Sequence record: PV805630.1
Direction: 5' to 3' (one strand)
Source: a phage
Length of the DNA: 64,000 nt
Shown here: piece by piece, positions 1,865 through 21,513 of the stretch
Numbering within the stretch: position 1 is the stretch's first letter
Layout of the letters: each line of letters opens with the position of its first letter
Made by a program: the position numbers and the translations under genes
The notes under the pieces: model-generated
What the model was told of the DNA's origin: nothing
Seen by the model: only the letters and a program-made list of their open reading frames with translations
The model's database searches: none

Positions 1865-1888
1865 ACTTAAACAAACCGGAGCCAGGAA

Positions 1889-2074
1889 ATGAGATCTGAA
1901 ACAGTCTTTGCTTTGATTGTTGGCTTTGCGTTTGGGCTATTCACTATGGGTGTGTTAATGACTCATATTGGCCCAAACTCTAAGGCCAAGGTTGATGCTC
2001 GCAAGGCCGAATGTGAATTGAATATCCCTCGCAATCAAAACTGTGTAATGCAGTTCATACCGGAGAAGAAATGA
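1889..2074 (+). CDS. Hypothetical small membrane protein
   Basis: 61-aa ORF with N-terminal hydrophobic helix; GGAG 8 nt upstream of the ATG. Confidence 0.3.
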   Translation: MRSETVFALIVGFAFGLFTMGVLMTHIGPNSKAKVDARKAECELNIPRNQNCVMQFIPEKK

Positions 2075-2280
2075 GAGTAACAAATCGTTCTGAAAACACT
2101 GAAGTAACTTTCGGTGATGTGCAACCTGCTAACGGTTTTATTTATAACCAGTCTGTGTGTTTAAAGATTTACTTACCTGATGGTAAACCTGCTGCTGTTG
2201 CTGTAGAGACAGGAAAATCATTCTGTCTATCAGCAAGTACTTTTGTAACACCAATAAACCTGGAAGCATATTACCTATGA
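2071..2280 (+). CDS. Hypothetical protein
   Basis: 69-aa ORF, ATGA overlap with the upstream gene (translational coupling). Confidence 0.3.
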   Translation: MRVTNRSENTEVTFGDVQPANGFIYNQSVCLKIYLPDGKPAAVAVETGKSFCLSASTFVTPINLEAYYL

Positions 2281-2462
2281 AACTTACCCAGTCCCAAGCA
2301 ATCTTCCTTCGCATGGTTCAAGGTGGTTCTGCCACCAGCAACCGTAATAACAAAACCGCACAGTCTCTTAAGAAGCTGGGCTTAGTACAGTTCAATGCTG
2401 GTCTTGGGTGGTCATTAACCCCTACCGGCGTACTTCAACTCAACGGGTTAAAAGGTAACTAA
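2277..2462 (+). CDS. Hypothetical protein
   Basis: 61-aa ORF, ATGA overlap with the upstream gene. Confidence 0.3.
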   Translation: MKLTQSQAIFLRMVQGGSATSNRNNKTAQSLKKLGLVQFNAGLGWSLTPTGVLQLNGLKGN

Positions 2463-2789
2463 ATGAAAACTTTAATTGCTGTTGTTCTAGTAGCTTTATC
2501 AGTTCTTTCCTTCGGTGCTCAAGCATCTAGTCGTGCAACCTTGTTGGAATCTGCTGCTGATTACAAAGCTAATAATGCAAACTTTGTGAACCAGGGTTAC
2601 TTCATGGGCATGGTTACTATGGGTGTGGAAGCAGGAAAGAATTGTGTACCTGACGGTATAAAATTAGGGCACATTTTTGACAGAGTGGCCTCTATTATTC
2701 TGTATGACCGAAAGGTTAATGCAGTAAAAGTACCATCAGACATGATTCTGTTAGCGATTGATACAGCGTATCCCTGCGTTAAATCTTAA
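2463..2789 (+). CDS. Secreted/periplasmic hypothetical protein
   Basis: N-terminal signal-peptide-like segment MKTLIAVVLVALSVLSFGAQASS; 108 aa. Confidence 0.35.
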   Translation: MKTLIAVVLVALSVLSFGAQASSRATLLESAADYKANNANFVNQGYFMGMVTMGVEAGKNCVPDGIKLGHIFDRVASIILYDRKVNAVKVPSDMILLAIDTAYPCVKS

Positions 2790-2823
2790 TTAGTAATTCC
2801 ATTAACTTTAGGAGAGTAAGTAA

Positions 2824-3876
2824 ATGGCGAGCATTGACTCCTTGACTGTATGTAATACACGCCAAGCCCGTAACTTTATCATCCGTGCCCTGCAAGCAGG
2901 TAACGTACCGTTCCTGACTTCATCACCGGGCATGGGTAAATCTGCAATTATCCGCTCTGTTGCAGAAGAATTTGGCATGAAGCTGATTGACCATCGTCTG
3001 TCTACTTCTGCCCCGGAAGACTTGTCTGGTCTACCATTCCGTAATGGTGACCGTGCAGAGTTTATTCCATTTGCTGACTTGTTCCCTATCGAGGGAGACG
3101 AAGTACCGGAAGGATATAATGGCTGGCTCCTGTTCCTTGATGAGTTCAACTCAGCTAAGAAAGAAGTAGTAGCTGCTGCATACAAACTGATTCTCGACCG
3201 TATGACTGGACAGAAAAAACTTCACCCTAATGTGATGATTATCTGTGCCGGTAACAAAGCTACTGACCGTGCTATCGTTAACCCACTGGGTACTGCAATG
3301 CAGTCTCGTGTTGTCCACTTCGAAATGGAACTTAACTTCGACATCTTTGTTGAAGACGTAATGATTCCACAAGAATGGGATGAGCGTCTGGTTGCATTCT
3401 TACATGCTAACCCTGGTTATCTGCATGACTTCGACCCTGCCCATAAGAACAAAACATTCTGTTGCCCTCGTACCTGGGACTTTGTTAACAAAGACCTCAA
3501 GAACCGACCAGAAGGTGCTCTGCCTGATGAAGATTCTATCTACTATGCAGGCCACGTTACTGCCGGTAAAGCTACAGAGTTTGTTCAGTTCACCCAGGTA
3601 TACAATCGTATGATTACGATTGAGAAGGTAGTCAAAGACCCTTTGGGCTGTGCACTACCGGAAGATAATAACCTGTGTTGGGCTACCGTTAACCATCTGG
3701 CTAACAAGACTACAGAAGAGAACTTCGTTGATGTACTTAAGTACATTGAGCGATTCAAAACGTTCACTCATAAGATTCTGTACTTCCGTACAGCAGGTAA
3801 AGCATTACCAGAAATTCAGGCTACCCCTGAATGGCGTAAGGCTGCTGCCAATATTTCTCGTTACATTCACGGATAA
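2824..3876 (+). CDS. MoxR-like AAA+ ATPase
   Basis: Walker A SSPGMGKSAI and Walker B LLFLDEFNSA, followed by a MoxR-like helper region; AGGAGAG RBS. Confidence 0.6.
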   Translation: MASIDSLTVCNTRQARNFIIRALQAGNVPFLTSSPGMGKSAIIRSVAEEFGMKLIDHRLSTSAPEDLSGLPFRNGDRAEFIPFADLFPIEGDEVPEGYNGWLLFLDEFNSAKKEVVAAAYKLILDRMTGQKKLHPNVMIICAGNKATDRAIVNPLGTAMQSRVVHFEMELNFDIFVEDVMIPQEWDERLVAFLHANPGYLHDFDPAHKNKTFCCPRTWDFVNKDLKNRPEGALPDEDSIYYAGHVTAGKATEFVQFTQVYNRMITIEKVVKDPLGCALPEDNNLCWATVNHLANKTTEENFVDVLKYIERFKTFTHKILYFRTAGKALPEIQATPEWRKAAANISRYIHG

Positions 3877-3883
3877 TCACAAC

Positions 3884-5059
3884 ATGAACCAGATACCTCA
3901 GCACACACTTAGTGATGAACAACTCATGCGCGAGTATGACCGTATTCAGGCCCAAGCCTTTCTAGGCAAGTCTGCTGCGTTTTTTGGTTCATTGCTGTGT
4001 AGTCTTAAGTTCTCATGGAAACGTGAGGACTGTCCTACTGCATGTACTGACGGGATAGAACTTCATTTCAACCCAGACTTCTTTATATGGATGTGCCCAG
4101 ATGCAAGAGAAACAGTGCTAATGCACGAACTCTGGCATGTGGCATATCTGCATGGAATCCGTTGTGGAAGCCGTGACCCAGAAGTCTGGAACCAGGCATG
4201 TGACCACTTCATTAACCTTCAGTTAGAGGAAGATGGTTACAAGTTCACCGGTATCGACGAAGGCATTTGCAAAGACCCTCAATATAAAGGATGGGTCGAA
4301 GAAGACATCTACGATGATCTGATGAAGAACCCTCAGAAAAGGCAGAAGCCGTCAGGGGGTATCGGAGCAGGTCTTGCTGGCGACATGAAAGCTCCCTCTT
4401 CGGGGCAGTCCCAGGGTGCTGTTGTCAACAACGTTGTACGTGCAATGCAAAGCCAGAAGATGGCTGGTGGAACAATGCCCGGTAAAGGTGCTGGTCGTAT
4501 GGAAGAGGTTATTACCCAATTCCTTAAACCAGTGGTTCCATGGCAGGAAGTCCTGCTGAACTTCTTTACCGACATCGATGACACACACTATACGTGGGCC
4601 AGACCTAACCGTCGTTTCACTGACGTCTATCTACCTTCTATGGAAGATGATGAAGGACGCTTACGACACTTAGCCTACTTTGAGGATGTATCTGGTTCCA
4701 TTAGTAGTGCTGACTCTCTGCGTTTTAACTCAGAGGTTGCCTACGTTAAGAGCCAGTTCAATCCTAAGAAGATGACCCTAATTACCTTCGACGATATTAT
4801 CCAAGAAGAAATAGACATCACTGAAGAAGATACTTTTGAAGAGATTAAGATTACTGGACGAGGGGGTACAAACCTTGAACCAGTGCGCGAATGGATTATT
4901 AAGAATAAGCCAACCGCTGCAATCATATTCTCTGATATGTATGTTCGTCCTATGGAAGAATTACCATTTGATATCCCTATCATCTGGTGCGTTCTGAATA
5001 ATCCCAATGCTACCGTACCTTTTGGGGAGGTAGTTCATATCCCTAAAGGAATGAAATAA
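3884..5059 (+). CDS. VWA-like / HExxH metallopeptidase-like partner of the MoxR ATPase (DUF2201-like)
   Basis: Track ORF starts at 3650 inside the upstream gene; in-frame ATG at 3884 lies just after the ATPase stop. Translation contains HExxH (MHELWHVAYLHG) and a C-terminal VWA-like region. Confidence 0.5.
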   Translation: MNQIPQHTLSDEQLMREYDRIQAQAFLGKSAAFFGSLLCSLKFSWKREDCPTACTDGIELHFNPDFFIWMCPDARETVLMHELWHVAYLHGIRCGSRDPEVWNQACDHFINLQLEEDGYKFTGIDEGICKDPQYKGWVEEDIYDDLMKNPQKRQKPSGGIGAGLAGDMKAPSSGQSQGAVVNNVVRAMQSQKMAGGTMPGKGAGRMEEVITQFLKPVVPWQEVLLNFFTDIDDTHYTWARPNRRFTDVYLPSMEDDEGRLRHLAYFEDVSGSISSADSLRFNSEVAYVKSQFNPKKMTLITFDDIIQEEIDITEEDTFEEIKITGRGGTNLEPVREWIIKNKPTAAIIFSDMYVRPMEELPFDIPIIWCVLNNPNATVPFGEVVHIPKGMK

Positions 5060-14184: not shown

Positions 14185-14673
14185 ATGGAGTCATATATGA
14201 ATTGGCACGCTTTATTTGAATACATAGATGGAAAGCTCTATTGGAAAGTTAATCCATCTATGGCAGTGCGTATAGGACACGAAGCAGGGTCCATAAATGG
14301 AGATGGTTACATTCAAGTAGGTTACAAAGGCCATGTTTATCAAGCACACATAATTGTGTGGGAAATGCACAACGGCCCGGTTCCACCAGGAATGGTCATA
14401 GACCATGACGACAGGAACAGAATCAATAATCGAATAGATAATTTGAACTTAGTTACTCAGTTGCAAAACAATAGAAACAAGTCCAAAAGTAAAAGAAACA
14501 CATCTGGTGTTACTGGTGTGTACTGGCACAAACGTGACCAGAGATGGGTAGCATCAATCAGGATAGAAGGTAAGCTGAAACAGTTGGGTCAGACTACCTG
14601 TCTGGAGGAAGCTATTAAATTAAGAAGGGAAGCTGAAATAAAACATGGCTTCCATAAAAACCATGGTAAATAA
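14185..14673 (+). CDS. HNH homing endonuclease with AP2 DNA-binding domain
   Basis: HNH motif (HIIVWEMHNG ... IDHDDRNRINNRIDNLNL) plus AP2-like domain (SGVTGVYWHKRDQRWVASIRIEGKLKQLGQ ... EEAIKLRREAEIKHG). Free-standing between conserved replication genes. Confidence 0.6.
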   Translation: MESYMNWHALFEYIDGKLYWKVNPSMAVRIGHEAGSINGDGYIQVGYKGHVYQAHIIVWEMHNGPVPPGMVIDHDDRNRINNRIDNLNLVTQLQNNRNKSKSKRNTSGVTGVYWHKRDQRWVASIRIEGKLKQLGQTTCLEEAIKLRREAEIKHGFHKNHGK

Positions 14674-14685
14674 CTGGAGATTTAA

Positions 14686-15996
14686 ATGTTTTCCAAACCT
14701 ACCAAAGCCCCATTGAACCAGGGGCAAGAAGCGGTTGCGAAGGAGTTCTTCGACTTCCTGCTCGACCCTAATGCCACAGAGTTCGGAATCAGTGGACCTG
14801 GAGGAACTGGTAAGACATTCCTGATGTCGCACCTCATTGATGACACTATGCCTGCATATATGGAAACCTGTTCTCTGATGGGAACCAAGCCTCTGTATAA
14901 CGAAGTTGTCATGACTGCGACCACGAACAAAGCTGCTGAAGTTCTGGCTCAAGCTACTGGGCGTCCAACGTCTACCTATCATTCCTTCCAGGGACTGATT
15001 GTTAAGAATGACTTTAAGACCGGTGAGGCTAATGTCGTACCGTCTAAGTCATTCACTATTAAGAAGAACAAAATCATCTTCGTAGACGAAGCATCCATGA
15101 TTGACCGTCAGTTACTTAAGTATGCACGTGAAGGCACTCACCAGTGTAAACTGGTATTCGTAGGTGATGCTTCTCAGCTTCTACCTGTTAAAGAGAGTAA
15201 GTCTCCAGTGTATGCTGGCAATATCCCAACACACTATCTGACTGAACAGATGCGTACCGATTCACCAGAACTCAAAGCGTTGCATCAGCAATTGCGTGAT
15301 ACGGTGGAAGGTAAGACAGGCTTCCTGCCTATTAAATGTATTCCAGGCATTATTGACTGGGTGCAAGGGGAAGAGATGGAGAAACTGGTTCTCAGTCACT
15401 TCACTCAACCCACTAATAGTCGTATTGTTGCTTACACCAATGACCAGGTTATTAATTACAATAACTACATTCGTGAAGCTAACGGCTACGTGGGTGAATA
15501 CTCCATTGGAGAACAGCTTGTTTCTAACTCAGCTGTTCGCTTGGGCGTGGATGACCGTCTGTCTATCGAGCAGGACGTAAAACTCATTGACCAAGATAGC
15601 AGTACTCGCATGATTCAAGTCACAGGCGACCTGGAACTAGAAGTCCGTGATAGTACTCTAGACCTTGGTTATGGTGGTATTGTTAGTGAAGTTCCAATTC
15701 CTACTGACCCGGACTACTTCAACCGTTTGGTTAAGTGGTTAGGTAAAGAGAAGAACTGGGAACCTTACTTCCGTCTTAAAGAAACCATTCCAGACCTACG
15801 TGCTACTCATGCATGTACTGTTCATAAATCACAAGGCTCTACTTACGACACAATCTTCATTGATGCAAATGACCTCTCAAGCTGTCGCCAACCTGATATG
15901 GTTGCCCGTCTGCTTTACGTCGCTGTGTCTCGTGCCCGTAAGCGTGTAGTGTTCTATGGCAATCTTGCCAGTAAGTACGGTGGTCTAACTTTCTAA
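14686..15996 (+). CDS. SF1 DNA helicase (Dda/RecD-like)
   Basis: Walker A GPGGTGKTF, Walker B region IIFVDEASMI, and C-terminal VHKSQGSTYDTIFID typical of RecD/Dda-family helicases. Confidence 0.6.
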   Translation: MFSKPTKAPLNQGQEAVAKEFFDFLLDPNATEFGISGPGGTGKTFLMSHLIDDTMPAYMETCSLMGTKPLYNEVVMTATTNKAAEVLAQATGRPTSTYHSFQGLIVKNDFKTGEANVVPSKSFTIKKNKIIFVDEASMIDRQLLKYAREGTHQCKLVFVGDASQLLPVKESKSPVYAGNIPTHYLTEQMRTDSPELKALHQQLRDTVEGKTGFLPIKCIPGIIDWVQGEEMEKLVLSHFTQPTNSRIVAYTNDQVINYNNYIREANGYVGEYSIGEQLVSNSAVRLGVDDRLSIEQDVKLIDQDSSTRMIQVTGDLELEVRDSTLDLGYGGIVSEVPIPTDPDYFNRLVKWLGKEKNWEPYFRLKETIPDLRATHACTVHKSQGSTYDTIFIDANDLSSCRQPDMVARLLYVAVSRARKRVVFYGNLASKYGGLTF

Positions 15997-16006
15997 GGGA
16001 GAGTAT

Positions 16007-16537
16007 ATGCCTCAGATTGGTTCAGCGACTATTGGTCAGGTTGCCAATAGTAGTGAGATAGTCAAACACCTGTTCTTAGCAGAGCTGGTTCGTCTTGATG
16101 GTGTGTTAAACGGCATTATTGATAAGAATGATCGTATCAATGGCGTAGACGTATCGGCGGGATTTCTTCATCAAGGGGAGTTCTATCAGCGTTCTAATGC
16201 TACCAGACCTCCAACCTACGGTGAACGATTAACGCTTAATCCAGAACTATGGCCTGCAATGGACAAGTATCTGAAAGCCTCCAGTCGTCTGATTATGGAA
16301 GTACACCTTGTGAACCAGACTGTATATCGACTGGTTCGTGGTTGTATGTCCTACCAGGATGTACGTGATGCTTTGCCCGAATGTCTGGTAGCACAAGACC
16401 AGACTGGACAGTACAAAGGACTACCGCGTACTCGTGAAGCAGCTTGGACTCTTGCTGGTGATGCTATGGCAATCAAACAGTATGAGAAGATTCTTCCTTC
16501 TATTGAGTATTATGCAGCTTCCCATCTGATTTTCTAA
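16007..16537 (+). CDS. Hypothetical protein
   Basis: 176-aa ORF between the helicase and polymerase genes. Confidence 0.35.
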   Translation: MPQIGSATIGQVANSSEIVKHLFLAELVRLDGVLNGIIDKNDRINGVDVSAGFLHQGEFYQRSNATRPPTYGERLTLNPELWPAMDKYLKASSRLIMEVHLVNQTVYRLVRGCMSYQDVRDALPECLVAQDQTGQYKGLPRTREAAWTLAGDAMAIKQYEKILPSIEYYAASHLIF

Positions 16538-16546
16538 GGTAAAGCT

Positions 16547-18364
16547 ATGCGTTACATCACCTCTCAGGATACTGGCAAGTATCCTATTGCTATCCTCGGT
16601 CATCAAATCCGAAGGGAGGAGATGATTAAAACCTACCTGCTGCCTTATGACCTAAGCATGGAAGATTTCATCTTCCTTGAACTTCATTCTGCCCCTGGCA
16701 AGAAGAAAACTCCTGCAAGGGAGATTAAGGAGTTCATACAGCAGGAACTGCAACAAGTACTGGATGATGCAGAGACTCAATACATTATCTGTACCGATTC
16801 TGACTACTTTAAAATACTGACTAAAGAAGCTAAAGCAGAAGCTAACCTCGGCTATGTTTGTGACTCAGTATGGGGTAAGCAGAAGGTTATCTATACACCT
16901 AGTTACAGACAGGTCTTTTACGACCCACCAGTAGTGAAAGCCAAGATTGCTCAGGGTATGGATGCATTACTTAACCACATTCGTGGGCAGTATGCTGAAC
17001 CAGGACAGGGAATTATTGAGTTTGAAGCCTATCCGGATACACCCGAAAAGATTAAAGCCTGGTTAGACCAGTTGCTTGAGATGAATAAGCCTCTGGCTAT
17101 AGACATCGAATCATTCGGTTTAAAGCACTATAACGCAGGTATAGGAACTATTACGTTCTGTTGGAGTAAGACACAAGGCATAGCCTTTAATGTGGACTAC
17201 GAGCCGATTAAGGGGGCTACTGAAGCCCCTTATGGGCGTATTAACAGGAATGATGTTGTTCGTAACCTGTTACGTGAGTTCTTCATTAAATACACTCAAC
17301 GGCAGATGTATCACAACATTAGCTATGACGTGTACATACTTATCTATCAGTTATTCATGGATAACCTGATTGATACAGAAGGCTTACTGCATGGCATGGA
17401 AATCATGCTACGTAACTGGGACTGTACTAAGTTAATCACCTACCTGGCTACTAACAGTTGTGCCGGTAATCACCTTAGTCTGAAAGATCAGGCTCAGGAG
17501 TATGCTGGTAACTATGCTCAGGATGACATTAAAGACATACGTCTTATTCCTAATGAGCAACTGTTACGCTACAACCTCATTGATGGTTTGTGTACGTGGT
17601 ACACCTACGAGAAGCACTGGGATACTCTCATTGCTGATGACCAACTGGATGTTTACAACAACATCTTTAAACCAGCCTGTGAAGACATTATTCAGATGCA
17701 GTTAACCGGTATGCCCATGAATATGGAAACCGTTAACCAAGTAGCTGAAGAGATGGAAACTGACAGGAATCAGGCTCTGAAAACTATTCGTGAGTCTAAG
17801 CTCATGAAGAACTTCACCCTGATGCTTCGGCAGGAATGGGTAGACGATAAGAATGCTAAGCTTAAGAAGAAGCAGGTAACACTGGCTGATTGTGACATCG
17901 AGTTTAATCCTAATTCAGGGCCACAATTACAGAAACTGTTATTTGATTATATTGGCTTACCGGTCCTTGGTCTTACTAAGAGCAAGCAACCTGCTACTGA
18001 CGGTGACACTATTAAAGCACTGCGTACACATACGCAGAGTGAAGATGTTAAGGAACTGCTCAATGCACTTATCGACTATAAACTCGTGGATAAGATTATC
18101 ACTAGTTTTATACCAGCTTTCAGGAATGCCCAACCGGGGCCGGATGGCTGGCACTATCTGTTCGGAAACCTCAATCTGGGAGGCACAGTCTCCGGTAGGC
18201 TATCGGCTTCAGAGCCAAATCTACAAACAATTCCATCCGGCTCTAAATATGCCAAGAAGATTAAGAAATGCTTCGAAGCCCCACCCAGTTGTTACTTGCC
18301 AAACAGGAATAAGCTGGATACATTAATCCAGTCCCTGAAAAATACAATTGGTGGTGCCGAATGA
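16547..18364 (+). CDS. Family A DNA polymerase, N-terminal part (3'-5' exonuclease, thumb, start of fingers)
   Basis: Exo I-like motif LAIDIESFG; near the C-terminus PNLQTIPSGSKYAKKIKKCFEAP matches the Pol I segment NLQNIP...IRQAFIAP that precedes motif A. The frame then ends after 26 unrelated residues. Confidence 0.65.
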   Translation: MRYITSQDTGKYPIAILGHQIRREEMIKTYLLPYDLSMEDFIFLELHSAPGKKKTPAREIKEFIQQELQQVLDDAETQYIICTDSDYFKILTKEAKAEANLGYVCDSVWGKQKVIYTPSYRQVFYDPPVVKAKIAQGMDALLNHIRGQYAEPGQGIIEFEAYPDTPEKIKAWLDQLLEMNKPLAIDIESFGLKHYNAGIGTITFCWSKTQGIAFNVDYEPIKGATEAPYGRINRNDVVRNLLREFFIKYTQRQMYHNISYDVYILIYQLFMDNLIDTEGLLHGMEIMLRNWDCTKLITYLATNSCAGNHLSLKDQAQEYAGNYAQDDIKDIRLIPNEQLLRYNLIDGLCTWYTYEKHWDTLIADDQLDVYNNIFKPACEDIIQMQLTGMPMNMETVNQVAEEMETDRNQALKTIRESKLMKNFTLMLRQEWVDDKNAKLKKKQVTLADCDIEFNPNSGPQLQKLLFDYIGLPVLGLTKSKQPATDGDTIKALRTHTQSEDVKELLNALIDYKLVDKIITSFIPAFRNAQPGPDGWHYLFGNLNLGGTVSGRLSASEPNLQTIPSGSKYAKKIKKCFEAPPSCYLPNRNKLDTLIQSLKNTIGGAE

Positions 18365-19017
18365 TTGGAAAGAAATTCAATAGATTGACAATAGTAAGAT
18401 TCAGTCACAAAGACAAATACTATGCAAAGCATTGGGAATGTCTTTGTGACTGTGGGAACACTACTATAGTCAATATTCAAAAATTAAAGAGTGGTCATAC
18501 AAGAAGCTGTGGATGTTTACACAAGGAACGCCCGGGCAACTACAAAGATGGGCGTTCCAAGGAACTCCTATATAAGATTTACTACGGTATTCTTGACCGC
18601 TGCCATAATGAAAAGTGTTCCACTTATTACAAATATGGAGCCAAAGGCGTAATTGTTTGCGACGAGTGGAGGAATTCATATGAAACTTTCCGAGAATGGG
18701 CATTATCTTCTGGCTATAAAGTAGGTCTTAGTATTGACAGGATTGATTCTTACAAAGGGTACTCTCCTGACAACTGTAGGTGGGCAGATAGAAGTACCCA
18801 ACAAACTAATAAGAGGGTTTGGAGTACAACTCCTTACGTTAGTTACAGTAAGTCGAAAAATAAATGGGTAGGTAGAATTACCCATTTAGGTAAGAGAGTA
18901 GAAATCCTAGTAGATAAAGATTTAGATGCTGTTATGAATGCGGTTATTGCTTATGTATTAGCAAATAACATGGTTGAACAGGAGAAGGTACTTCGTAATG
19001 CAGGACTTATTAAATAA
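18361..19017 (+). CDS. HNH homing endonuclease inserted within the DNA polymerase gene
   Basis: 218 aa with a Cys-rich N-terminal region (CLCDCGN ... SGHTRSCGC) and an HNH-family C-terminal signature (LSIDRIDSYKGYSPDNCRWADRSTQQTNKR). ATGA overlap with the polymerase N-part stop. Confidence 0.5.
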   Translation: MIGKKFNRLTIVRFSHKDKYYAKHWECLCDCGNTTIVNIQKLKSGHTRSCGCLHKERPGNYKDGRSKELLYKIYYGILDRCHNEKCSTYYKYGAKGVIVCDEWRNSYETFREWALSSGYKVGLSIDRIDSYKGYSPDNCRWADRSTQQTNKRVWSTTPYVSYSKSKNKWVGRITHLGKRVEILVDKDLDAVMNAVIAYVLANNMVEQEKVLRNAGLIK

Positions 19018-19969
19018 ATTAGTTAGCATAAAAGATAGAGTAACCCTGGATGACTATGATGAATTAATGCAATTAGCTAGTAAATATGACATGCAGGAAC
19101 AAGTGTCTGATTGCTTTAACTATGAGGGGGGTTGGTTGTTCTGTGGCCTCGATTTTGCATCCTTAGAGGATCGCATATCAGCCCTAACAACCAAAGACCC
19201 TAATAAATTGCGTGTATACACTGACGGGTTCGATGGACATTCACTCAGAGCTAAATTTTATTTCGGGGAACAAATGCCGGATATTGATGACTCTGTGGAA
19301 GGCATCAACTCTATACAGAAAAAATATAAGTCATTACGTAGTGAATCGAAAGCACCTACTTTCTTATTAACCTACGGAGGGACTTATATGGGCTTAATGA
19401 AAAACTGTGGTTTCTCTGAAGAGAAAGCTAAGTTAATCGAATCCAGATACCACGAAATGTATACAGTTAGTGATGCGTGGGTTCAGTCTAAGCTAGACGA
19501 AGCTGCCAAAACTGGTTATGTAACTGCTGCATTTGGTTTGAGAGTGCGTACTCCTTTACTGGCTCAGGTATTACGTGGGACATGTAAGACTCCATATGAA
19601 GCAGAAGCTGAAGGTAGGACTGCTGGTAATGCCTTGGGGCAAAGCTGGTGTCTACTTAATAACCGTGCTGGTTCAGAGTTTATGCGTAAAGTCAGAGCCA
19701 GTGAGTTCAGATTAGATATACGTCCTAGTATTCACATTCATGATGCTCAGTACTTCATGATTCGTGACAATATGGATACCTTGCAATTCACGAACAAGCA
19801 TTTGGTGGAAGCCGTTAACTGGCAAGACCATCCTGATATTGCTCATCCAGAAGTTGGTTTGGGTGGGGAACTATCCTTGTTCTACCCAACGTGGGCTAAC
19901 GAGATTGAGATTCCAAATCACGCTACCCCAGAAGAAGTTCATCAAATAATTCAAAAGGCATTCGCATGA
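18998..19969 (+). CDS. Family A DNA polymerase, C-terminal part (palm motifs A, B, C)
   Basis: Track ORF begins at TTG 18974; in-frame ATG at 18998 follows AGGAGAAGG. Motif A-like GGWLFCGLDFASLEDRI, motif B-like KAPTFLLTYGG, motif C-like IHIHDAQY. Confidence 0.6.
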   Translation: MQDLLNKLVSIKDRVTLDDYDELMQLASKYDMQEQVSDCFNYEGGWLFCGLDFASLEDRISALTTKDPNKLRVYTDGFDGHSLRAKFYFGEQMPDIDDSVEGINSIQKKYKSLRSESKAPTFLLTYGGTYMGLMKNCGFSEEKAKLIESRYHEMYTVSDAWVQSKLDEAAKTGYVTAAFGLRVRTPLLAQVLRGTCKTPYEAEAEGRTAGNALGQSWCLLNNRAGSEFMRKVRASEFRLDIRPSIHIHDAQYFMIRDNMDTLQFTNKHLVEAVNWQDHPDIAHPEVGLGGELSLFYPTWANEIEIPNHATPEEVHQIIQKAFA

Positions 19970-20271
19970 CTAAAAGTACTAAAGAAACCGTCGTCAAAAA
20001 ATATCATTGGATGGTGGCAGCACAGGTAATCTTCCAGCTTCCTAAAGCCGATGATGGTTCCCTGCTTACCATGAACACAATGCTGCTCACTACTGAACCT
20101 TATGTGACCTATAAAGATATGGCTCGTGCCAATCATTCCCTGAAAATTAGTCTGGACCAGCGTTTCGATACCTCAGTTGACCTGAAAGACATTGTTTATC
20201 TGTCTCTTAGCAACCTGGGTCTGATGTCTGAACCAGAGTTCCAGGCAAACATGATTCCCAAGGGGGAATAA
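19966..20271 (+). CDS. Hypothetical protein
   Basis: 101-aa ORF, ATGA overlap with the polymerase stop. Confidence 0.3.
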   Translation: MTKSTKETVVKKYHWMVAAQVIFQLPKADDGSLLTMNTMLLTTEPYVTYKDMARANHSLKISLDQRFDTSVDLKDIVYLSLSNLGLMSEPEFQANMIPKGE

Positions 20272-20555
20272 TGACTAAGCTCTCCGGTGGCCTTAATAAC
20301 TACTATGTAGTTTTGATTAAGAATCCCCAACGGAAAGAGCAAGAGCCATACCAAGCAGAGTGTGAGGATATTATCCAAGCATTGGGCATGACCTTCGATG
20401 AAGGTTGTGCCTTTAAAGCTCTATGGCGAAATGCTGCTGCCCGTATGGGTAATGGTAAACCAGGTAACTCTTCGGTGTACGACTCAGAGAAGATTGTGCA
20501 CTATGCCAATCGAATATTGAAAAAGGCTTATAATGAAGATAACCAACAATCATGA
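20271..20555 (+). CDS. Hypothetical protein
   Basis: 94-aa ORF. Confidence 0.3.
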   Translation: MTKLSGGLNNYYVVLIKNPQRKEQEPYQAECEDIIQALGMTFDEGCAFKALWRNAAARMGNGKPGNSSVYDSEKIVHYANRILKKAYNEDNQQS

Positions 20556-21513
20556 TGTCTCACTGGCGCTGGCTGTTTGGCTTGTTACAGATGATTATGA
20601 TTATGTAGACAATCCTAAGTACCTGTCTGCTACTACATTGCTTAAGCCTATTAAGCAAATCGTCATGAAGCATCGTGTAGATTTTAGTGACCAGTCTATT
20701 GATGTTATGGATTTTGTTTCCACATCAATGGGTACTGGCTTACATGATTCTATCGAGAAAGCCTGGAAGCTAGGTCATAAGACTGCATTGAAGAAGCTAG
20801 GTTATCCTCAGCGAGTAATTGATGCAGTAGTCATTAACCCAACCAAAGAAGACTTTGCTGCTAACCCTGACCTTATCCCAATCTACATTGAACAGCGTGG
20901 AACCAAGCAGGTTAAGGGATGGACTATTGGTGGTAAATTCGACATCGTAACGGAAGGTCTGTTGCAAGACTTCAAGTCTACCTCAACCTATTCCTGGGTT
21001 GCTGGTTCCCGTGATGATGAACACAAGATGCAAGGCAGCTTGTACCGTTGGATTCACAACGACATCATTACTGAGGATGTAATTCGTATTAACTACATCT
21101 TCACCGACTTCATGAAACACATGGCTAACAGCAATCCGAACTATCCTGCTAATCGCATTATGCATAAGGATATTCCGTTACTGTCTGTCGAGAAGACTGA
21201 GCGTTGGGTGGAAGAGAAAATTCACTTAATCGAAAAGTACTGGGATGCACCTGAAGAGGAAATCCCTGAATGTACTGACGAGGAGTTGTGGCGAACAGAG
21301 CCACAGTTCAAATACTTCTCTGATGCTTCTAAGGTAGATGTACCTGGGGCCAGAAGTACCAAAAACTTTGGCGATATGGCATCTGCCCGTATCTTCATGG
21401 CTGAAAAAGGTGGCAAGGGTGCTATCAAGGTTGTGGAGGGGCAGGTTAAACGCTGTTTATATTGCCCTGTCGCATCCATTTGCAAACAAAAAGAGAGATA
21501 TTTTCCATCATGA
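20533..21513 (+). CDS. PD-(D/E)XK nuclease with C-terminal Cys cluster (Cas4/RecB-like)
   Basis: D-x(n)-D-x-K arrangement (GKFDIVTEGLLQDFKS) and a C-terminal CxxCx5C (RCLYCPVASIC) with an upstream Cys, as in Fe-S RecB/Cas4-type nucleases. Confidence 0.45.
   Translation: MKITNNHDVSLALAVWLVTDDYDYVDNPKYLSATTLLKPIKQIVMKHRVDFSDQSIDVMDFVSTSMGTGLHDSIEKAWKLGHKTALKKLGYPQRVIDAVVINPTKEDFAANPDLIPIYIEQRGTKQVKGWTIGGKFDIVTEGLLQDFKSTSTYSWVAGSRDDEHKMQGSLYRWIHNDIITEDVIRINYIFTDFMKHMANSNPNYPANRIMHKDIPLLSVEKTERWVEEKIHLIEKYWDAPEEEIPECTDEELWRTEPQFKYFSDASKVDVPGARSTKNFGDMASARIFMAEKGGKGAIKVVEGQVKRCLYCPVASICKQKERYFPS

Follow-up and report, generated by a model that had tools for sequence, protein, structure and literature searches.

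How can the gene of a selfish endonuclease occupy the gene of a phage DNA polymerase, and in what form is the interrupted polymerase then made? Selfish endonuclease genes are thought to survive in essential genes by hiding in self-splicing introns or inteins. The question is raised by positions 16547-19969 of a 64,000-nucleotide (nt) stretch of phage DNA (sequence record PV805630.1; hereafter the window), where a family A DNA polymerase gene is split in two by an open reading frame (ORF) for a putative HNH-type homing endonuclease. Our analysis points, with good though not complete confidence, to a self-contained mobile cassette that is neither an intron nor an intein, and to a polymerase that would be made as two chains. 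The window comes from a Gamaleyavirus, a G7C-like N4-like coliphage, and its region 16000-20500 matches 75 phage records, the best of them being phi G17 (94% identity). The GenBank records of phi G17, U1G and PGN829.1 annotate 'DNA polymerase I' twice with an HNH gene in between, and the split of the gene as such is already on record there. In the literature, we found no paper on this cassette, on splicing tests in these phages, or on the conserved peptides at the break that are described below.

The cassette and the two polymerase genes

A preliminary description of the locus had listed three ORFs, 16547-18364 (605 amino acids, aa), 18361-19017 (218 aa) and 18998-19969 (323 aa), and had read the outer two as the parts of one family A polymerase. 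All three ORFs are found at these positions in the ORF list, both outer ones match the Pfam family DNA_pol_A, and motifs A, B and C lie in the second part. The description had also proposed a comparison with the intact polymerase genes of related phages, and this comparison fixed the insert at 18287-19129. The uninterrupted enzyme is a single 859-aa ORF in phages G7C, E20 and ECBP1 and a single 860-aa ORF in KP8. In G7C, E20 and ECBP1 the intact gene reads ...KKCFEAPP|GWIFCGLDFASLEDRI, where the bar marks the point at which base-level alignment places the insertion in the window; the polymerase sequence that spans this junction is CFEAPPGWLFCGLDF. The locus has the following features:

16547..18364, + strand: polN, 605 aa, made up of 580 native residues, a 25-aa tail and a TGA stop (Pfam DNA_pol_A, PHROG 17)
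18287..19129, + strand: putative mobile cassette, 843 nt, delimited by alignment to the empty alleles of G7C, E20 and ECBP1
18287..18361, + strand: N tail, 25 codons, SCYLPNRNKLDTLIQSLKNTIGGAE, in the polN frame; predicted helical, with the peptide kept in contigs L010, L011 and L017
18350..18356, + strand: GGTGGTG, similar to a Shine-Dalgarno (SD) sequence, within the tail codons, 4 nt 5' of the HNH ATG
18361..19017, + strand: HNH-AP2 endonuclease ORF (putative), 218 aa, in a frame that differs from that of the polymerase (PHROG 374)
18980..18988, + strand: AGGAGAAGG, SD of polC, within the HNH ORF at its 3' end, 9 nt ahead of the polC ATG (18998)
18998..19969, + strand: polC, 323 aa, made up of a 44-aa head and 279 native residues (Pfam DNA_pol_A, PHROG 2573)
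18998..19129, + strand: C head, 44 codons, MQDLLNKLVSIKDRVTLDDYDELMQLASKYDMQEQVSDCFNYEG; predicted three short helices and a terminal strand, in frame into Gly581

The cassette sits between polymerase codons Pro580 and Gly581, with a boundary that is ambiguous by 1 nt, and its GC content is 37% against 42-45% in the flanks. The native part of polN comprises a putative exonuclease region, the thumb and the NLQTIP...KKCFEAPP segment. It matches Pfam DNA_pol_A (PF00476) at E 3.8e-18 over profile positions 11-150 and PHROG 17 at E 1.5e-118, and it is 97% identical to G7C gp39 at the nt level up to base 18285. On the other side, polC matches DNA_pol_A at E 6.3e-16 over profile positions 131-303 and PHROG 2573 at E 9e-74. 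The NCBIfam family PRK05755 matches the polymerase pieces at positions 523-661 and 645-807, and polN and polC together cover the family A profile in order. Motifs A (GLDFASLEDR), B (KAPTFLLTYGG) and C (IHIHDAQ) of polC are all intact, and motif A pairs with ..VALDYSQIELR of Taq in the alignment. When solved Pol I structures are aligned, the break falls between E602 and G603 of Taq, seven residues ahead of the aspartate of motif A; counting along the sequence from D705, we take the insertion point to be E697|D698 of E. coli Pol I.

Both peptides contributed by the cassette are absent from the uninterrupted polymerases. The tail, which includes LDTLIQSLK, had been noticed in the preliminary description as an unrelated extension of 26 aa; the extension is real, but alignment to the intact genes gives it 25 aa. 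The head reads MQDLL...CFNYEG and includes VTLDDYDELMQLASK. It had partly been taken for polymerase, in that the second part was said to resume at DCFNYEGGWLFCGLDF; the native sequence resumes there only from GW, and DCFNYEG belongs to the insert.

Within the cassette, the tail codons are followed by the stop, the HNH ORF, an SD, the ATG of polC and the head codons. The polN stop TGA (18362-18364) overlaps the HNH ATG (18361-18363), and SD-like purine runs were found at the same place upstream of the HNH ATG in 10 of the 10 cassette copies examined. The SD and ATG of its own that had been assigned to polC are indeed in place; the ATG lies 20 nt inside the HNH ORF, and an AAGG-type motif occurs about 10-14 nt upstream of the polC ATG in most cassette lineages.

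The 218-aa ORF had no match in Pfam or NCBIfam. It matched PHROG 374, 'HNH endonuclease', at E 5e-62, as well as five further HNH-annotated PHROGs down to E 2e-9, and tblastn found its homologues in 825 phage records. Alignment of 115 homologues, from which a neighbour-joining tree was also built, revealed a Cys-rich N-terminal beta domain in which C27, C29, C31, C50 and C52 are invariant or near-invariant, further conserved cysteines at C81, C100 and C139, and the motif D126-R127...Y134-x-P136-x-N138-C-R-W...Q147..N150, with N138 invariant and N150 conserved in at least 90% of the sequences. An AlphaFold2 model built from this alignment (pLDDT 93) places strands at 124-127 and 139-142 and a helix at 144-149, a beta-beta-alpha layout as in HNH nucleases, and a Foldseek search of the model against the PDB recovered the C-terminal AP2 fold only (7et5, probability 0.97). 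Variable sites of this ORF fall 18/13/68 on the three codon positions, with 66 synonymous and 33 non-synonymous changes, as under purifying selection. In a qualified sense, then, the product may be called an atypical HNH-AP2 homing endonuclease.

Splicing or two chains

If the 843-nt insert were a self-splicing group I intron with an HNH ORF, the locus would yield one 859-aa polymerase. This is the usual layout for HNH genes in phage Pol A (SPO1, Bastille, Pf-WMP3, PhiI; PMC3428280), it was the guess of authors of related genomes (PMC3670811, PMC10580990), and the insert is precisely bounded and has a length that is a multiple of 3. Moreover, the sister phage PhAPEC5 (locus L003) has a real group I intron only 66 nt away from the junction: a different insert of 704 nt (2721-3424), 66 nt upstream, which splits the Asn codon of NLQ (G7C residue 558), was annotated by its authors as an intron and has an Rfam match at 3125-3378. 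By residue counting we take its position to be N675 of E. coli Pol I, within the classic region of Pol A introns.

The preliminary description had asked for a group I covariance search. We ran a permissive Rfam scan (E up to 10; group I model RF00028) with PhAPEC5 as the positive control in the same search, and no group I or group II intron was matched either in 17800-19600 of the window or at the phi G17 locus. The control gave a full-length Intron_gpI match (38 bits, E 6.6e-7), so the method is able to see introns of this gene in this genus; these 38 bits are below the Rfam curated threshold of 50 bits, and the negative result is therefore supportive and not conclusive. The ends of the insert do not resemble those of a group I intron either. 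At its last position (19129), where a group I intron has the conserved omega G, the five cassette phages have G, A or T. If the boundary is set at 18286-19128 instead, all five have C, not U, as the last exon base before the insert. The 186 nt that lie outside the endonuclease ORF fold no better than shuffled sequences (z = -0.58), and the R/S core consensus of group I introns was not found in them.

A structured RNA made of the whole cassette (z = -8.45) was considered and dropped, because ordinary coding segments nearby have z values of -4 to -8.5; the strongest hairpin of the cassette (18404-18450) is disrupted by two uncompensated changes in phi G17. As a separate observation, coding segments of the replication gene block (window 14686-21375, in segments of 843 nt) fold well below their dinucleotide shuffles, with z from -4 to -8.5 (-8.5 for segment 20533-21375), and window segments elsewhere have z near 0 to -2. 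Against this background the folding of the cassette, with z of about -7 to -8.5, is unexceptional.

The way in which the insert evolves also bears on the intron. Among the five phages, the 112 nt of the head that precede the junction have 13 variable sites, of which 10 are third positions when read in the polC frame (P=0.0016), against 2 and 1 in the other two frames. We therefore conclude that this stretch is translated in frame with exon 2. In agreement with this, three metagenomic contigs (L010, L011 and L017) have the same layout with an HNH protein that is 58-62% identical to that of the window. Their tails are AYYLTKRDELAKLIKSIKHQISGA, AYYLTNQEKLSTLIQSIKNTLRGA and AYYLTKEDEVAKLIKSIELQILGA, respectively, and their heads start with MQDLL and contain ...ASKYD...CFxY... 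Between these lineages, the proportion of synonymous differences (pS) in tail plus head is 0.48-0.84, largely saturated, and that of non-synonymous differences (pN) is 0.12-0.46; for the tail alone, pN is 0.12-0.39 and pS 0.59-0.81. Synonymous sites are thus largely saturated at lower pN, and tail and head are therefore conserved as proteins. All in all, these results make the intron very improbable and uphold the preference for a split gene that had been expressed in the preliminary description.

Translated flanks would also be expected of a split intein, in which tail and head would act as intein halves and ligate polN and polC by trans-splicing. A tail and a head on either side of a homing endonuclease gene are similar to the 'fractured gene' layout of split inteins (PMC2677866), and the tail of the window begins with Ser-Cys. 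However, tail and head amount to 69 aa in total, too small for the HINT fold. At the first position of the tail, S occurs beside A, G and D, and most lineages have one of the latter three. The heads end in ..YEG, ..YMP, ..QDP and the like, none of them in His-Asn, and position +1 holds Gly or Trp, with no case of Cys, Ser or Thr. With these residues absent, the likelihood of an intein is negligible.

It could further be argued that the interrupted polymerase is a dead gene and that replication relies on another polymerase. We regard this as extremely unlikely. In the cassette phages, synonymous and non-synonymous changes in the exon stretches beside the insert number 19 and 0 on one side and 34 and 4 on the other, a strong purifying selection from which it follows that the polymerase gene is not dead. 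Furthermore, all polymerase motifs are intact, the split layout persists among related cassettes down to 43% HNH identity, and for four isolated phages that bear the cassette, complete or near-complete genomes have been deposited.

In the two-chain arrangement that we favour, a single transcript would carry three cistrons, polN, endonuclease and polC. The first would give native residues 1-580 followed by 25 cassette residues, and the last 44 cassette residues followed by native residues 581-859. Translation of the three might be coupled through the ATGA overlap and through the polC start within the endonuclease ORF. The two chains would then reassemble non-covalently across a surface break in the palm, ahead of the catalytic Asp of motif A. 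Indirect support for such an assembly comes from the purifying selection on exons, tail and head and from the isolation and sequencing of phages that bear the cassette. As for its spread, the endonuclease would cut or nick empty polymerase alleles near the site, and repair would copy the cassette in, dragging variable lengths of the downstream exon along with it.

Mobility and spread of the cassette

The cassette is common to the window, phi G17, ST4, PGN829.1 and U1G, with 90-93% identity and no insertions or deletions. Its site is empty in G7C, E20 and ECBP1. In the window, phi G17, PGN829.1 and U1G, where the site is occupied, the upstream flank is G7C-like. In ST4 the cassette lies in E20-like flanks, which match E20 at 290/300 bases upstream and at 59/60 and then 288/300 bases downstream. 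The window matches G7C at 297/300 bases upstream of the junction and, downstream of it, at 37/60, then 214/300, then 471/480. Since the same cassette is found in different polymerase alleles in ST4 and in the window, we conclude that it is mobile, and these comparisons indicate that the mobile unit coincides exactly with the 843-nt cassette, the downstream exon being co-converted to a variable extent.

The exon tract downstream of the junction stands out by its divergence:

19130..19490, + strand: divergent exon tract, about 62-71% nt and about 87% protein identity to G7C and E20, delimited by sliding identity

Identity of the window returns to 97-100% after about +360 nt from the junction. 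The tract is probably flanking DNA that was co-converted with the cassette. We had considered a donor from a foreign genus and dropped it, because +60 to +360 is also present in the uninterrupted ECBP1, with about 90% identity, which makes the tract an allele that circulates within the genus. Only its first ~60 nt are specific to cassette bearers, and ST4 lacks even those. In these first ~60 nt past the junction (window 19130-19190; GW(I/L)FCGLDFASLEDRISALT), synonymous sites are very polymorphic and the protein is nearly invariant: the window matches G7C at 37, E20 at 42 and ECBP1 at 44 of 60 bases, and G7C and E20 also differ from each other. Escape from endonuclease recognition, or repeated co-conversion, could account for such a pattern.

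In the neighbour-joining tree of the 115 homologues, the endonuclease of the window falls within a 12-member clade of Pol A-associated HNH proteins. Genomic context was examined for 9 of the 12 members (the window cluster P0136; L010; L011; L017/L018; L012-L014; L015/L016; L102; L103; L104/L105). Results showed that all nine split a Pol A gene at ..CF.AP(P/E)|GW...DF.SLE, with L103 possibly off by one residue. Each of these cassettes has a tail of 17-26 aa, an SD and an ATG of its own for the endonuclease, and a head of 44-54 aa, and polC starts 8-32 nt inside the endonuclease ORF. By comparison, none of 82 loci outside the clade (80 IMG/VR loci with related endonucleases and 2 homologues just outside it) lies in Pol A; the IMG/VR loci, found with the HNH alignment, added no cassette and served as a negative control. 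The hosts of the clade are N4-like phages and at least one metagenomic phage that is not N4-like: L012-L014 include a 75-kb N4-like contig, and the L015/L016 contig has no N4-like synteny and also carries NAPRTase and phosphoribosyltransferase genes. The best matches of the L012 HNH protein in the phage database are the four cassette-bearing Gamaleyaviruses, and the relation is reciprocal. Two subgroups can be told apart among the cassettes, 'near' (window, L010, L011, L017) and 'far' (L012, L015, L102, L103, L104), within each of which tails and heads are clearly alike; near and far share their architecture and a hydrophobic pattern like that of a helix.

When the head plus 20 residues served as the query of a protein search, only three matches were obtained. 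We also considered that the head might have arisen by duplication and decay of the native stretch that precedes the junction (SKY...CF..GW on both sides), and dropped this, the alignment not being significant (of 5000 shuffles, 251 reach its score). The far subgroup lacks the SKY and CF residues, and a long tblastn alignment to KP8 was an over-extension. The same data give no support to the suggestion that a 'CF' segment on both sides of the insertion marks the endonuclease target: the likeness exists at the protein level only, is equalled by that same number of shuffles and is missing from distant cassettes.

What, then, do the tail and the head do? An amphipathic pattern, L..LI.SL, marks the tail, and about three short helices can be read in the head. 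By analogy with the NrdA tails of phage Aeh1 discussed below, the tail, as one amphipathic helix, and the head, as about three, might form a small clasp that helps the two chains to assemble, a proposal to which we give even weight for and against. In an AlphaFold2 model of an artificial polN-polC fusion, only residues 585-645, that is tail and head, exceed pLDDT 50, and they are laid out as a strand, four helices and a strand; we take this segment as a hint of a small clasp domain, not as evidence. On another view the polymerase is still made as two chains, but tail and head are by-products kept for their translation signals, and the halves join through the native interface alone. It is true that the end of the tail overlaps the SD of the HNH ORF and that the SD and ATG of polC lie inside that ORF, and the lack of significant codon bias in the tail among the closest phages and the weak resemblance of near and far peptides, both detailed below, fit this view too. 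Yet the head is 44-54 aa long in every lineage, far beyond what a start codon needs, and is under purifying selection; the helix-type hydrophobic pattern L..LI.S[LI] of the tail recurs in most lineages; and tail plus head make up the only confident segment of the fusion model. We therefore consider a pure by-product unlikely, although it deserves to be taken seriously.

Several observations weigh against a cassette of two chains, an endonuclease and assembly peptides as we have drawn it. To the limit of the Rfam negative given above it must be added that a large ORF within the core can keep an intron from being detected by the Rfam group I model. The codon-position bias of the tail is not significant among the five closest phages (4/1/5), and the conserved ..GA at the tail end could be held by the embedded SD instead of by protein function. 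Similarity between the near and far subgroups is weak (P 0.02-0.1 for each of the heads, tails mixed), so that common ancestry of the peptides across the clade rests mainly on the shared architecture. The fusion model is globally unusable (mean pLDDT 32; no contact information), because the alignment behind it is too shallow. As for the endonuclease, the position of the canonical HNH catalytic His is an invariant Arg (R127) in 115 of the 115 homologues, and the Foldseek search of its model against the PDB returned no HNH structure. For both reasons, its activity is inferred from its distribution only, and the label of HNH endonuclease that the ORF had been given, in line with PHROG 374, needs to be narrowed to an atypical HNH-AP2 protein that Pfam misses and whose catalytic His is replaced.

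Taking both sides together, we propose tentatively, and a shade less firmly than the clasp itself, that these cassettes make up a previously undescribed 'split-and-clasp' family. Its members would combine an endonuclease gene with a stop, restart signals and matched assembly peptides of their own, and would colonise the loop before motif A in unrelated phages without RNA or protein splicing.

Some related loci depart from this layout. In L103 (867-1706), the polC fragment stops again right after motif A (..WILCGADFSSLIY*), and a second ORF about 150 nt further downstream resembles the middle domain of the same endonuclease family; this polymerase may be split twice. In L108 and L109 (1857-3998), the last 20 nt of an SNF2-type helicase ORF overlap the start of the gene for a related endonuclease (P0253, 165 aa), behind which lies an ORF of 167 aa that Pfam does not match; this may represent an analogous split of a helicase gene. 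Upstream of the L015 cassette (1888-3982) there are three ORFs, of 534 aa (no Pfam match), 45 aa and 110 aa (DNA_pol_A); either this polymerase may have its N part broken into more pieces, or the contig may contain assembly errors.

The gene block around the polymerase holds other variable spots. In the window, the ORF after gp40 (20271-20555) has 94 aa, as in E20. G7C and phi G17 have at this place an ORF of 156-157 aa, annotated in phi G17 as a 3'-phosphatase/5'-polynucleotide kinase, and in G7C it is followed by an extra HNH gene, gp41.1. Just upstream of the helicase gene, the window carries a second, canonical free-standing HNH endonuclease gene (14185-14673; PHROG 99, E 5e-65; motif VIDHDDRNRINNRIDNLNL), and the C-terminal part of its product looks AP2-like by eye.

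Comparison with known systems

The endonuclease agrees in description with the IPA-HNH class of Barth et al., which comprises atypical HNH proteins that are missed by Pfam, carry an AP2 domain in addition and are often encoded next to polymerase genes (PMC10448857). Compared by description only, it fits this class: like the IPA-HNH of the ICP1-like phage, it is an atypical HNH protein undetected by Pfam HNH_3 and has a C-terminal AP2 DNA-binding domain. It differs in that no Pol A-splitting clade with tail and head is described in PMC10448857.

HNH genes in phage Pol A are otherwise known from introns, namely I-HmuI (SPO1), I-HmuII (SP82), I-BasI (Bastille), I-PfoP3I (Pf-WMP3) and I-TslI (W31), which lie at E. 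coli Pol I sites 674, 676 and 881 (PMC3428280). The cassette resembles them in placing an HNH-type gene precisely in a conserved functional region of Pol A, with a presence that varies among close relatives. In contrast to these elements, which are self-splicing RNAs, it is located at 697|698, has no detectable ribozyme and has translated flanks.

A third insertion, unrelated to the other two, is found in phage SP5M (L019, about 2677-3378), some 90 nt downstream of the junction and after ..KLKVY. It encodes a canonical HNH protein (..VNHLDGNKQNPHKDNLKW..) and leaves a 654-aa polN and a 276-aa polC, each of which has additional residues where the gene is broken. Insertions of this type appear to be common, to judge by the many proteins of 276 aa in the polC cluster. 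Together with the cassette and the PhAPEC5 intron, it follows that three different elements target a 160-bp stretch around motif A within one genus and, if this is confirmed, the stretch would provide a tractable system in which to study competition among homing elements. Polymerases encoded as two ORFs with an inserted ORF have also been described in the Vibrio N4-like phages JA1 and VchO139-I (PMC3670811) and in the OM43 phages MEP401 and MEP402 (PMC10580990), where an intron was suggested without a test. These are probably other elements, because the best relatives of the Pol A-clade HNH in the phage database are only the four Gamaleyaviruses. If the two-chain reading of the cassette is confirmed, annotators and authors of phage genomes would no longer have 'intron' as the default assumption for split polymerase genes, and a natural, evolution-tested split site with its pair of peptides would be at hand for two-piece Pol I-type polymerases.

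The closest parallel is found in Aeromonas phage Aeh1, where nrdA is split by the free-standing HNH gene mobE into 'genes in pieces' (Friedrich 2007, PMC1851037; Crona 2011, PMC3045599) and where the insertion-derived tails of NrdA-a and of NrdA-b are indispensable to activity (PMC3045599). By the sequence evidence, the cassette would belong with 'genes in pieces' as well: each polymerase fragment has translation signals of its own, no intron or intein is apparent, and the tails derive from the insertion. In both systems, a replication-related essential gene is cut into two translated genes by an endonuclease ORF, without intron or intein, and unique tails extend the first fragment at its C end and the second at its N end. 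They differ in the host gene, here a family A DNA polymerase, and in the endonuclease, which belongs here to another, atypical HNH-AP2 lineage. They also differ in that tail and head are here part of the mobile unit and recur with the same architecture at the same codon junction in several phage lineages. Aeh1, the one well-studied exception to hiding in introns or inteins, with a host protein whose two pieces are joined by tails that stem from the insertion, has been treated as a single case, 'in at least one instance' (PMC10448857). Finding the split-gene solution in a family A DNA polymerase suggests that the Aeh1 case was no one-off accident, and it looks like a recurring intron-free way for a selfish element to occupy an essential gene. 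Should the 'split-and-clasp' reading prove true, it would stand as a third heritable solution beside introns and inteins. The interest of the cassette in relation to Aeh1 is that the solution appears to have been packaged into a mobile element and reused across phage lineages.

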